IMG/VR virus record: IMGVR_UViG_2778261673_000003
From: a virus
Lineage: Duplodnaviria > Heunggongvirae > Uroviricota > Caudoviricetes
DNA length: 5,770 bases
Strand: one strand, 5' to 3'
A model generated the notes under the pieces. It saw only the letters and a list, made by a program, of their open reading frames with translations. It ran no database searches and was not told the DNA's origin. Each line of letters starts with the position of its first letter. The first letter of the stretch is position 1. The position numbers and the translations under genes were made by a program. Shown one piece after another: positions 1,973 to 5,626 of this stretch.

Positions 1973-4573
1973 ATGAGCACAAAACCACTCTTCCTGTTAC
2001 GGAAAGCGAAAAAATCATCCGGTGAACCTGACGTCGTCCTGTGGGCAAGCAACGATTTTGAATCGACCTGTGCCACTCTGGACTACCTGATCGTTAAGTC
2101 AGGTAAAAAACTGAGCAGCTATTTTAAAGCTGTTGCCACGAATTTTCCTGTCGTTAATGACCTGCCCGCTGAAGGTGAGATCGATTTTACCTGGAGTGAA
2201 CGCTATCAACTCAGCAAAGACTCCATGACATGGGAACTAAAACCGGGAGCAGCACCAGACAACGCTCACTATCAAGGCAATACCAACGTCAACGGCGAAG
2301 ACATGACTGAGATTGAGGAGAATATGCTACTCCCAATTTCTGGCCAGGAACTGCCCATTCGTTGGCTTGCTCAACACGGCAGCGAAAAACCGGTAACGCA
2401 CGTTTCACGCGACGGACTCCAGGCATTACACATTGCTCGGGCTGAAGAACTACCGGCTGTTACTGCCCTGGCTGTTTCCCACAAAACCAGCCTGCTCGAC
2501 CCGCTGGAAATTCGCGAACTCCACAAACTGGTTCGTGACACTGACAAAGTTTTCCCTAATCCTGGTAATTCAAACCTGGGACTGATAACTGCTTTTTTCG
2601 AAGCATACCTGAACGCTGACTACACCGATCGAGGACTGCTGACAAAAGAGTGGATGAAGGGTAATCGTGTTTCACACATCACTCGCACGGCTTCCGGTGC
2701 TAATGCTGGCGGCGGAAACCTCACCGATCGCGGCGAAGGTTTCGTACACGATCTGACGTCACTGGCGCGCGACGTAGCCACTGGCGTACTGGCCCGTTCA
2801 ATGGATCTGGACATCTATAACCTTCATCCGGCACACGCTAAACGCATTGAGGAAATTATCGCTGAAAATAAACCGCCCTTTTCTGTTTTCCGCGACAAAT
2901 TCATCACCATGCCTGGCGGGTTGGATTATTCCCGCGCCATCGTGGTTGCGTCCGTAAAAGAAGCACCAATTGGGATCGAGGTCATCCCCGCGCACGTCAC
3001 TGAATATCTGAACAAAGTACTGACTGAAACCGATCATGCCAACCCTGATCCGGAAATCGTGGATATTGCCTGCGGTCGCTCCTCTGCCCCGATGCCGCAG
3101 CGAGTAACAGAAGAAGGAAAACAGGATGATGAAGAAAAACCGCAACCATCTGGAACAACGGCAGTTGAACAGGGAGAGGCTGAAACAATGGAACCGGACG
3201 CAACTGAACATCATCAGGACACGCAGCCGCTGGATGCTCAGTCACAGGTAAATTCTGTTGATGCGAAATATCAGGAACTGCGGGCAGAACTCCATGAAGC
3301 CCGGAAAAACATTCCATCAAAAAATCCTGTCGATGCCGATAAATTGCTTGCTGCATCACGTGGTGAATTTGTTGACGGAATTAGCGACCCGAACGATCCG
3401 AAATGGGTAAAGGGGATCCAGACTCGCGATTGTGTGTACCAGAACCAGCCAGAAACGGAAAAAACCAGCCCAGATATGAATCAACCTGAGCCAGTAGTGC
3501 AACAGGAACCGGAAATAGCCTGCAATGCCTGCGGCCAGACTGGCGGGGATAACTGCCCTGACTGTGGTGCGGTGATGGGCGACGCAACATACCAGGAAAC
3601 ATTCGATGAAGAGAGTCAGGTTGAAGCTAAGGAAAATGATCCGGAGGAAATGGAAGGCGCTGAACATCCGCACAATGAGAATGCTGGCAGCGATCCGCAT
3701 CGCGATTGCAGTGATGAAACTGGCGAAGTCGCAGATCCCGTAATCGTAGAAGACATAGAGCCAGGTATTTATTACGGAATTTCGAATGAGAATTACCACG
3801 CGGGTCCCGGTATCAGTAAGTCTCAGCTCGATGACATTGCTGATACTCCGGCACTATATTTGTGGCGTAAAAATGCCCCCGTGGACACCACAAAGACAAA
3901 AACGCTCGATTTAGGAACTGCTTTCCACTGCCGGGTACTTGAACCGGAAGAATTCAGTAACCGCTTTATCGTAGCACCTGAATTTAACCGCCGTACAAAC
4001 GCCGGAAAAGAAGAAGAGAAAGCGTTTCTGATGGAATGCGCAAGCACAGGAAAAACGGTTATCACTGCGGAAGAAGGCCGGAAAATTGAACTCATGTATC
4101 AAAGCGTTATGGCTTTGCCGCTGGGGCAATGGCTTGTTGAAAGCGCCGGACACGCTGAATCATCAATTTACTGGGAAGATCCTGAAACAGGAATTTTATG
4201 TCGGTGCCGTCCGGACAAAATTATCCCTGAATTTCACTGGATCATGGACGTGAAAACTACGGCGGATATTCAACGATTCAAAACCGCTTATTACGACTAC
4301 CGCTATCACGTTCAGGATGCATTCTACAGTGACGGTTATGAAGCACAGTTTGGAGTGCAGCCAACTTTCGTTTTTCTGGTTGCCAGCACAACTATTGAAT
4401 GCGGACGTTATCCGGTTGAAATTTTCATGATGGGCGAAGAAGCAAAACTGGCAGGTCAACAGGAATATCACCGCAATCTGCGAACCCTGTCTGACTGCCT
4501 GAATACCGATGAATGGCCAGCTATTAAGACATTATCACTGCCCCGCTGGGCTAAGGAATATGCAAATGACTAA
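1973..4573 (+). CDS. recE: Exodeoxyribonuclease VIII (RecE, 866 aa); C-terminal PD-(D/E)XK 5'->3' dsDNA exonuclease domain
   Basis: Uninterrupted 866-codon [25 protein letters not shown]...[14 protein letters not shown] at 1959..1962 lies 10 nt before ATG 1973. Motif RPD...IMDVK puts Asp at codon 748 and D-V-K at codons 759-761, consistent with the RecE catalytic residues as I recall them. The central part is a D/E-rich low-complexity region. Confidence 0.95.
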
Positions 4574-5382: not shown

Positions 5383-5403
5383 TGGCGGTGTAATGCACCG
5401 CCA
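5383..5403. other. 8-bp stem / 5-nt loop hairpin between recT and ralR
   Basis: TGGCGGTG (5383..5390), loop TAATG, CACCGCCA (5396..5403). A T6 run (5414..5419) begins about 10 nt downstream, so this is not a canonical intrinsic terminator. Confidence 0.3.
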
Positions 5404-5431
5404 ACTTGAAATATTTTTTATGAGAAAAATT

Positions 5432-5626
5432 ATGAGATATGACAATGTTAAACCATGTCCATTTTGTGGTTGTCCATCAGTAACGGTGAAAGCCATTTCA
5501 GGATATTACCGAGCGAAGTGTAACGGATGCGAATCCCGAACCGGTTATGGTGGAAGTGAAAAAGAAGCACTCGAAAGATGGAATAAACGAACCACTGGAA
5601 ATAATAATGGAGGTGTTCATGTATAA
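5432..5626 (+). CDS. ralR: Restriction alleviation protein Lar / RalR (64 aa), Cys-rich zinc-ribbon-like; reported as a DNase toxin of a type I toxin-antitoxin pair
   Basis: MRYDNVKPCPFCGCPSVTVKAISGYYRAKCNGCESRTGYGGSEKEALERWNKRTTGNNNGGVHV, with Cys at positions 9, 12, 14, 31 and 34. Start taken at ATG 5432 to give the 64-aa length I recall. The track ORF begins at ATG 5393, which sits inside the upstream hairpin; a further in-frame ATG lies at 5420. The Shine-Dalgarno is weak. Stop TAA at 5624..5626. Confidence 0.75.
   Translation: MRYDNVKPCPFCGCPSVTVKAISGYYRAKCNGCESRTGYGGSEKEALERWNKRTTGNNNGGVHV

Follow-up and report, generated by a model that had tools for sequence, protein, structure and literature searches.

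What four cysteine residues are doing in the long N-terminal part of RecE (exodeoxyribonuclease VIII), far from its nuclease domain, is the question raised by this locus. Two 2023 reviews describe the N-terminal ~600 residues of RecE as 'of unknown function', and they report that full-length RecE favours linear-linear recombination. The DNA analysed here in full (the window; 5,770 nucleotides, IMG/VR record IMGVR_UViG_2778261673_000003) is the Rac prophage recombination region of Escherichia coli, containing sieB (minus strand), kilR, racC, recE, recT and ralR/lar, and E. coli chromosomes annotated sieB-kilR-racC-recE-recT match it with 99.8–100% identity in many genomes. Its RecE matched the NCBIfam equivalog NF007259 over the full length (1831 bits, cut-off 1269), placing it in the RecE family, and is 100% identical to protein cluster P0001. 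We find that the four cysteine residues form the core of a module of ~28 residues, which recurs on Dam methyltransferases, DnaQ-like exonucleases and small early proteins of temperate phages, and which may present a zinc-stapled docking surface to a common partner.

A conserved four-cysteine module in RecE

An earlier note on this DNA had picked out a CxxC-x7-CxxC cluster in RecE. Translation of the window returned the peptide quoted there exactly, with Cys517 (3521–3523), Cys520 (3530–3532), Cys528 (3554–3556) and Cys531 (3563–3565) at 3521–3565 and seven residues between the two CxxC pairs. RecE has 14 cysteine residues in 866, and in 20,000 shuffles of its residues any CxxC-x(2–25)-CxxC arrangement arose in only 0.095%. 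At the DNA or RNA level, the cluster contained no inverted repeat and gave no Rfam match, a single 11-nt direct repeat being attributable to chance; a nucleic acid feature at this position was excluded by these scans. The two halves are both CxxC-type knuckles and the second has the CPxCG form (CNACG...CPDCG, 3521–3568). The module comprises the following features.

3521..3535, plus strand: putative zinc knuckle 1, C517-N-A-C520-G521 (from the translation)
3536..3553, plus strand: Gly-rich inter-knuckle loop, Q522-T-G-G-D-N527 (G-G pair at least 90% conserved in alignment A4)
3554..3568, plus strand: putative zinc knuckle 2, C528-P-D-C531-G532, with the CPxCG signature (from the translation; CPDCG recurs in other contexts)
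3569..3604, plus strand: conserved module tail, residues 533–544 (starting at A533), a putative docking surface (T-Y and x-x-[MT]-[FV] conserved though not required by the searches)

The module thus covers RecE residues 517–544 (window 3521–3604), and alignments A2 and A4 gave the consensus [V]-C-x-x-C-G-x-x-G-G-x(1-2)-C-P-D-C-G-[APS]-[VCA]-[MCA]-G-[DN]-[AS]-T-Y-x-x-[MT]-[FVL], with which K-12 RecE agrees at every conserved position. The inter-knuckle loop has 6–7 residues across contexts, and CPDCG is present in RecE-type, Dam-type and small-protein contexts, including sets that were not selected on it. Invariance in A2 and A4 is partly circular, since the search patterns demanded some of these residues, and therefore three non-circular tests were made. 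Of 245 open reading frames (ORFs) picked only by CPDCGxVMGD, 240 had at least two further cysteine residues in the 13 residues upstream (84 of the 88 distinct sequences), compared with 13 of 641 other CxxC sites in neighbouring ORFs, and T-Y, which the search did not require, stood at the expected place in 222 of the 245. When Dam homologues were collected using the methyltransferase itself, a selection in which the tail played little part, a Cys-rich tail directly followed the conserved EVIGVL in 89 of the best 120; these tails had mostly the canonical module or a form with V-M changed to C-C, C-M or A-M, and the remaining homologues had other tails or none. The ligands themselves can move. 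In one subfamily the second ligand is relocated (C-x5-7-C-x2-C-P-D-C) and in one protein the first is a histidine residue (H-x3-C-x2-C-P-D-C), but both still have four potential ligands, so that ligand number is kept in homologues despite relocation, as a metal site predicts. Scans for the relocated-cysteine variant detected only four loci in viral contigs and three in metagenome contigs, one of them in a new context (L249).

Over 17 module codons (10 fixed by the search pattern, those of A-T-Y being free), RecE and non-RecE contexts differed by 5–11 synonymous and 2–6 non-synonymous changes, the latter mostly at x positions. This synonymous divergence indicates that the similarity is held at the protein level and does not stem from recent DNA exchange. 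The non-ligand residues D530, G532, V534-M535, G536-D537, T539-Y540 and F544 were as conserved as the ligands across unrelated carriers. Taken together, these comparisons show that the module is real, autonomous and under purifying selection.

The module recurs in unrelated phage proteins

The core pattern CPDCGxVMGD was back-translated and scanned against one genome per bacterial species, giving 20 loci. In addition to the expected Escherichia and Shigella RecE, and a few more RecE or RecE N-terminal parts in metagenome-assembled genomes labelled Roseburia, Veillonella and Proteobacteria, the module was found to close the C-terminus of 316–348-codon frames in Salmonella, Enterobacter soli, Kluyvera, Klebsiella spallanzanii, Mixta, Raoultella and Kosakonia. 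These frames are D12-class Dam methyltransferases (PF02086, expect value E=5e-63). The module also ended small proteins of Oceanisphaera and Plesiomonas. A locus in a Saprospiraceae metagenome-assembled genome had the second knuckle only and was discarded as a chance match.

Two scans of IMG/VR with the same pattern enlarged this set to at least 246 module-bearing ORFs, almost all on viral contigs, which were sorted into architecture classes by phmmer matches to four reference domains. Among the matches listed (n=246), 102 were Dam methyltransferases, 79 joined the RecE N-terminal part to a DnaQ-like DEDD 3'-5' exonuclease (PF16473, as in P0122), 26 were true RecE, 25 were partial RecE N-terminal parts (contig-truncated or without a recognisable nuclease), two had the DEDD exonuclease only with no match to the N-terminal part, and 12 were other proteins, these proportions being biased by the CPDCGxVMGD requirement and by partial listing of the matches. 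The commonest 'RecE' architecture among the matches listed is therefore N-region, module and DnaQ-like DEDD domain, with 79 ORFs against 26 having the PD-(D/E)XK nuclease; examples of the DEDD fusion include P0122, L002 and L015, and viral loci such as L121 and L073. Judged by these domain matches, the catalytic domain is swapped for one of opposite polarity (3'-5' rather than 5'-3') behind the same N-terminal part and module.

The Dam carriers are P2-like Peduoviridae (phiT5282H, SW3 and SI7); for SEN4/5 the match is limited to the beginning of the Dam tail. The dam gene of phiT5282H belongs to the early operon, where it is flanked by cox and the gene for the gpA replication nickase. The other carriers were diverse. 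They included small early-region proteins of Mu-like phages, adjoining the transposase (phrog_310) and a MuB-like gene (phrog_296); a P2 gpB-like 'replication initiation protein' (phrog_154) adjoining a gpA homologue in Oceanisphaera; a 299-residue hypothetical protein of Aeromonas phage 14AhydR10PP; a 447-residue phrog_1376 protein; and stand-alone proteins of 60 and 76 residues (P0276 and P0277). The last two came from a profile search of a 5.8-billion-protein set with the module alignment A3, which returned 11 fragments, all of them short because the word-based candidate selection favoured tiny ORFs.

In every carrier, the module occupies either a terminus or a disordered linker. No Pfam model covered it in any carrier context; in PHROGs it was found only as an internal stretch of 'exonuclease' families, and Pfam, NCBIfam and PHROGs hold no model dedicated to it. 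Taken together, the carriers show that the module has been shuffled: it occurs in six or more protein architectures, and the temperate phages concerned are lambdoid, P2-like and Mu-like phages of Enterobacterales and Aeromonadales. The host range of the carriers may reflect the phage gene pool rather than the specificity of a partner.

Several Dam tails had further features of their own. In many of the P2-like Dam tails (P0282–P0401), the module is followed by a terminal acidic-aromatic tip (..TFDDLEAF*, ..GAFDGAEGF*, ..ESEENPIPL* and ..SDNPETW*), and some module-less Dam tails end likewise (..FVDEDAF*); tips such as ..FDDLEAF* and ..EENPIPL* recall the SSB C-terminal tip DDDIPF*. Among P0298, P0307, P0345–P0350 and others, there were tails with extra cysteine residues around the module (GGGCCPDCGPCCGD) and tails of a different kind with 8–9 cysteine residues (CDGCGRYEGGHCAKCCPGIAACEEGWSFDCRGNCDICE). 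Both kinds may form binuclear or alternative metal sites.

The module is an optional insertion in RecE

Within RecE, the module lies between two linkers of different character, and the surrounding features are as follows.

1973..4573, plus strand: recE coding sequence, exodeoxyribonuclease VIII, 866 residues (ORF; NF007259; recE annotation in the matching E. coli genomes)
1976..2506, plus strand: N-terminal Exonuc_VIII domain, residues 2–178, function unknown
3416..3520, plus strand: Q/P/E-rich disordered linker before the module, residues 482–516 (AlphaFold2 predicted local distance difference test score, pLDDT, <50; variable with indels among close RecE alleles)
3605..3784, plus strand: acidic disordered linker from the module to the nuclease domain, residues 545–604 (12–14 D/E per 40 residues; pLDDT <50 to residue 586)
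3785..4570, plus strand: PD-(D/E)XK 5'-3' exonuclease domain, residues 605–866 (PDB 3H4R)

The earlier note had placed the cluster in a D/E-rich low-complexity region upstream of a nuclease domain beginning around codon 588–606, and both statements agree with our results: the sequence is Q/P/E-rich upstream of the cluster and has 12–14 D/E per 40-residue window downstream, and the C-terminal PD-(D/E)XK domain runs from residue 605 to 866 in PDB 3H4R and from 615 to 850 in Pfam PF12684. No curated domain model of Pfam or NCBIfam covered RecE residues 179–614, which include the cysteine cluster.

Among the 90%-identity clusters, the 120 nearest to K-12 RecE (identity of 78% or more) were compared, and 114 of them had all four cysteine residues; the x positions varied (N/T/A, A/T, Q/K/H, T/S/A and D/G) and both flanks varied with indels. 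The picture was different at the family level. When 1.84 billion 50%-identity representatives were searched exhaustively with phmmer, 460 proteins were found at E ≤1e-30, and the best 150 were classified. Of these, the module was detected in one of the 12 other clusters with the N-terminal part and the PD-(D/E)XK domain, in seven of 49 representatives of any type with the RecE N-terminal part, and in none of 92 nuclease-only representatives. Conservation among RecE homologues, which the earlier note had proposed as the test of its site, thus does not hold, as most homologues are without the whole module, and the Cys4 cluster does not define the family. In module-less homologues (e.g. P0126 of Salmonella and P0123 of Citrobacter), an acidic linker of 67–122 residues with 0–2 cysteine residues was found in its place. 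The module is therefore an optional insertion in a disordered acidic linker rather than a feature of the RecE family. The sole full-architecture carrier among the 12 was P0211 of Salmonella (991 residues), which keeps the module despite ~32% identity to RecE and unrelated flanks, indicating that the conserved unit reaches past the cysteine residues.

Two further groups of relatives were seen. The P0133 cluster of E. coli (678–682 residues, annotated 'RecE family exodeoxyribonuclease') has the N-terminal part and the module with no recognisable nuclease domain, and probably corresponds to the nuclease-less 'RecE-2' proteins of a 2025 survey of lambdoid Rec modules (PMC12315714). P0202 (residues 447–464) and P0244 (residues 454–471) are RecE-family nucleases with unrelated N-terminal regions and a different Cys4 cluster (CANCGGSNINDDEQCNDC), located ~50 residues upstream of the nuclease domain and directly after a poly-acidic stretch. 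The design of an acidic linker plus a putative mini zinc site appears to have arisen independently in these two proteins.

A putative zinc site with a proposed docking surface

The earlier note had read the cluster as the signature of a zinc knuckle or small zinc ribbon, and the grammar CxxCG...CPxCG goes in that direction, as do matches below threshold to DZR and Zn_ribbon_3 and borderline profile hits on zinc ribbons of solved structure. From this zinc-knuckle grammar and the ligand-retention test we infer one Zn2+ bound through four cysteine residues, and the module probably does bind zinc. The metal would staple the two knuckles together, and stapling would fix D530, G532, V534-M535, G536-D537, T539-Y540 and F544 into a small acidic-hydrophobic surface, a role suggested by the equal conservation of these residues and the ligands across unrelated carriers. 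Such a surface could be a docking handle for a partner common to all carriers, and in RecE the handle, held on flexible acidic tethers, could bring the nuclease ring to that partner. Four residues of the RecE module are acidic and none is basic, no lysine or arginine is conserved in any context, and the surroundings in RecE are poly-acidic; this is why protein binding rather than nucleic acid binding is suggested, and of the two roles raised in the earlier note, protein-protein interaction appears to be the better reading than binding to DNA ends. We consider a docking role in place of DNA binding to be evenly balanced. Overall, a mobile accessory Cys4 module with a docking surface for a common partner is the best explanation that we can offer, and we give it an even chance of being correct.

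When 3,542 neighbouring ORFs were clustered all against all, the carrier classes had repressor, integrase and similar generic families in common, but no candidate for a phage-encoded partner. Since the three lineages to which the carriers belong are unrelated and share no neighbouring gene beyond these, the partner could be a host protein of DNA replication or repair, a suggestion that we make tentatively and with the balance somewhat against it; a replication or repair hub is the natural guess since all annotated carriers act on DNA. A wider proposal is that the lambdoid, P2-like and Mu-like lineages each grafted the module on to their early enzymes as a universal address tag, for delivery to one host hub, the cargo being a 5'-3' or 3'-5' exonuclease, Dam, the gpB-like loader or small effectors. 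We regard this proposal as rather doubtful.

Some more specific readings were considered and rejected. Reading the tail as a beta-clamp-binding motif (QL[SD]LF) or an SSB-type tip was discarded, because the residue at the Q position varies and the spacing is wrong. RecT as the partner was discarded because no RecT-like gene was seen near the module in the Dam-, gpB- and Mu-type carriers, which lie in P2-like or Mu-like early operons. Muyrers and colleagues are said to have found in 2000 that RecE 588–866 suffices for RecT binding.

Evidence against a docking module, and alternative explanations

A number of results weigh against a zinc-stapled docking module. AlphaFold2 was run on full-length RecE (139 aligned homologues, mean pLDDT 76); the model was confident at residues 1–98, 153–378, 428–481 and 587–866, and below 50 at 482–516 and 523–586, with residues 517–522 at ~46–50 and devoid of secondary structure, in a method that includes no metal and for a tiny module. 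A second run, on RecE 500–560 and from a module alignment of 41 rows, reached a mean pLDDT of 60.6, with 60–66 in the module and no hairpin; its sole element was a low-confidence helix at 532–554, and the module never exceeded 70 in either run. The Pfam zinc-ribbon models were missed by at least 10 bits (DZR 16.7 against a gathering threshold of 27.3; Zn_ribbon_3 14.6 against 27), so that no curated zinc-ribbon model gave a significant match, and the PDB profile matches were marginal (the C-terminal ribbon of the PIN-domain protein 2LCQ, E=0.0085; the TFIIB ribbon, E=0.13). The Gly-rich loop of 6–7 residues is shorter than in classical zinc ribbons and too short for the usual beta-hairpin. To these must be added the bias in the class proportions given above, and the fact that the step to a host partner draws its evidence from the distribution of the module.

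Natural variation and the biology of RecE also count against it. C517F occurs in five singleton metagenome-assembly clusters, and one natural RecE variant has residues 488–536 deleted (P0068, P0079, P0098, P0112, P0116 and P0006 being the variant set including the deletion); such variants may be decaying prophage copies or assembly errors. As a separate observation, the C517F proteins always also have C487S, and with one exception the variants were all found in singleton metagenome-assembly clusters. The module is missing from most RecE homologues, which argues that it is dispensable for core function. RecE residues ~588–866 suffice for RecT interaction and recombination, and the module is dispensable for the core exonuclease and recombination activity of RecE. 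Fu and colleagues reportedly ascribed, in 2012, the enhanced linear-linear recombination to the whole N-terminal region.

Other explanations have to be set beside the docking module. The cluster could bind zinc for structural reasons only, as a staple that makes a compact knot, resistant to proteases, in disordered tails and linkers, and have no specific partner. Its constant position in disordered or terminal regions, the Cys4 knuckle grammar and its dispensability in many homologues are what a staple would show, but a staple has no need of the non-ligand residues (D530, V-M, G-D, T-Y and [MT]-[FV]) that are conserved across unrelated carriers in which synonymous change is saturated, and the linkers of module-less RecE proteins work as plain acidic linkers; this explanation is unlikely. 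We consider it quite unlikely that the module is a nucleic-acid-binding zinc finger, helping the nucleases, the methyltransferase and the replication protein to grip DNA ends or single-stranded DNA. The earlier note had suggested binding to DNA ends, every annotated carrier acts on DNA and many zinc ribbons bind nucleic acids; the net negative charge, the lack of a conserved basic residue and the acidic linker around the module in RecE all speak against it.

An intermolecular zinc hook, in which the CxxC pairs of two chains share zinc ions and so dimerise or bridge RecE tetramers and tether two DNA ends, could underlie the boost that full-length RecE is reported to give to linear-linear recombination. 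CPDCG resembles the Rad50 hook motif, and AlphaFold2 predicts long flexible tethers around the module. There is no coiled coil at the motif, however, and the flanks are predicted to be disordered; moreover, the retention of four ligands per chain when one cysteine has been relocated points to a single intramolecular site, and the module is also found on monomeric-type enzymes such as Dam. Thus a hook is highly unlikely. The 6–8 cysteine residues of some Dam tails (GGGCCPDCGPCCGD and CAKCCPGIAACEEGWSFDCRGNCDIC) could hold more than one metal, and would suit a redox- or metal-sensing switch, or another metal or cluster site regulating the attached enzyme; with exactly four cysteine residues and no Fe-S-like spacing in the RecE-type module, such a switch is very improbable. 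Finally, recE is normally silent and belongs to a cryptic prophage, Rac, and a chance or decaying feature without function in K-12 RecE would agree with the C517F and deletion variants and with the many RecE homologues that have no module. This is scarcely credible given the shuffle probability of 0.1%, the identity of the K-12 sequence with the cross-family consensus at every conserved position and the intact cluster in 114 of 120 allele clusters.

Comparison with known systems

The module was compared with known small metal sites and short binding motifs. Small Cys4 ribbons (DZR PF12773, Zn_ribbon_3 PF13248, 2LCQ and the N-terminal ribbon of TFIIB) likewise have two CxxC-type knuckles with CPxCG, followed after the second knuckle by a hydrophobic stretch and G-D (CPECGLVVGD in TFIIB), and are often terminal accessories on nucleases, like the module; however, the latter has its own invariant extension VMGDxTYxx[MT][FV] and is acidic rather than basic. 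Rad50/SbcC zinc hooks share with RecE a CPxCG-type motif in a DNA-end-processing protein, carried on a long tether far from the catalytic domain. In the hooks, each chain contributes one CxxC, at the tip of an antiparallel coiled coil, and zinc lies between two chains, whereas the RecE module has two CxxC pairs, and thus four ligands, per chain and flanks that are predicted to be disordered. The DnaJ cysteine-rich domain also pairs Gly-rich CxxC knuckles in a compact zinc centre for protein contacts, and both halves of the RecE module fit CxxCGxxxG. The register differs (CxxCGxxG in RecE and CxxCxGxG in DnaJ), as does the number of centres (one and two respectively), and hmmscan did not list the DnaJ zinc-finger Pfam model even at E values up to 10, which places the module outside the DnaJ type. 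The SSB C-terminal tip DDDIPF and the beta-clamp motif QL[SD]LF provide a functional analogy only, as short elements on the termini or linkers of unrelated DNA enzymes; the module matches neither consensus and is putatively metal-stapled rather than linear.

The window itself contains a second small Cys4 phage early protein. The ralR/lar ORF (5393–5626, plus strand, 77 residues as given by the ORF finder) matched Pfam Lar_restr_allev PF14354 (E=5e-14) and has the Cys4 pattern CPFCG...CNGC, which makes it zinc-ribbon-like. It belongs to the same operon, 0.8 kb downstream of recE, but to a different family with different spacing and no VMGDxTY tail, and it is a stand-alone protein with a described phenotype.

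Novelty and significance

The earlier note was not aware of a described metal site here, and our searches also found none: the site has no Pfam model, is mentioned in neither of the two 2023 reviews (in one of which a word search found neither 'zinc' nor 'cysteine') and its motif strings occur in no searchable paper. Searches of the searchable library for the motif strings, RecE with zinc, exonuclease VIII with zinc finger or ribbon, and P2-like Dam with zinc found no published description of the module. The 2025 survey (PMC12315714) mentions DnaQ-type nucleases, nuclease-less 'RecE-2' and 'shuffling of partner interaction domains', without analysis. To judge from sequence, the module would represent a new family of putative mini zinc modules that is spread across phages in an unusual way.

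Recombineering relies heavily on RecE/RecT, and the module is the first discrete conserved element to be defined in the N-terminal part of RecE, although it is not specific to RecE, being found also on Dam methylases, DnaQ-like exonucleases, a replication-loader-like protein and Mu-like early proteins. If the address-tag proposal were true, the tag would be a phage counterpart of the clamp-binding or SSB-tail motifs. It would also be the first functional element to be defined within the ~600 residues of the N-terminal part of RecE, and would offer a way to the host factor on which full-length-RecE recombineering depends. A host hub, if there is one, would explain the localisation of diverse phage DNA enzymes and could be used to tune recombineering or to send cargo to the replisome. 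The proposal makes a testable prediction: a bait of 30–60 residues should capture the same E. coli partner whichever phage protein supplies it. If there is no partner, the module still stands as a new Cys4 family that lacks annotation, and a Pfam entry for it would be justified.

Other features of the window

Two minus-strand ORFs overlap the module region, at 3356–3799 (147 residues) and 3381–3602 (73 residues); both were treated as spurious because they are antisense to conserved coding sequence. For recT, the ORF finder gave a start at 4509 (288 residues), and an ATG at 4566 (MTKQPP...) overlaps the recE stop codon (4571–4573) by 8 nt (AATGACTAA). This overlap suggests that recE and recT may be translationally coupled.

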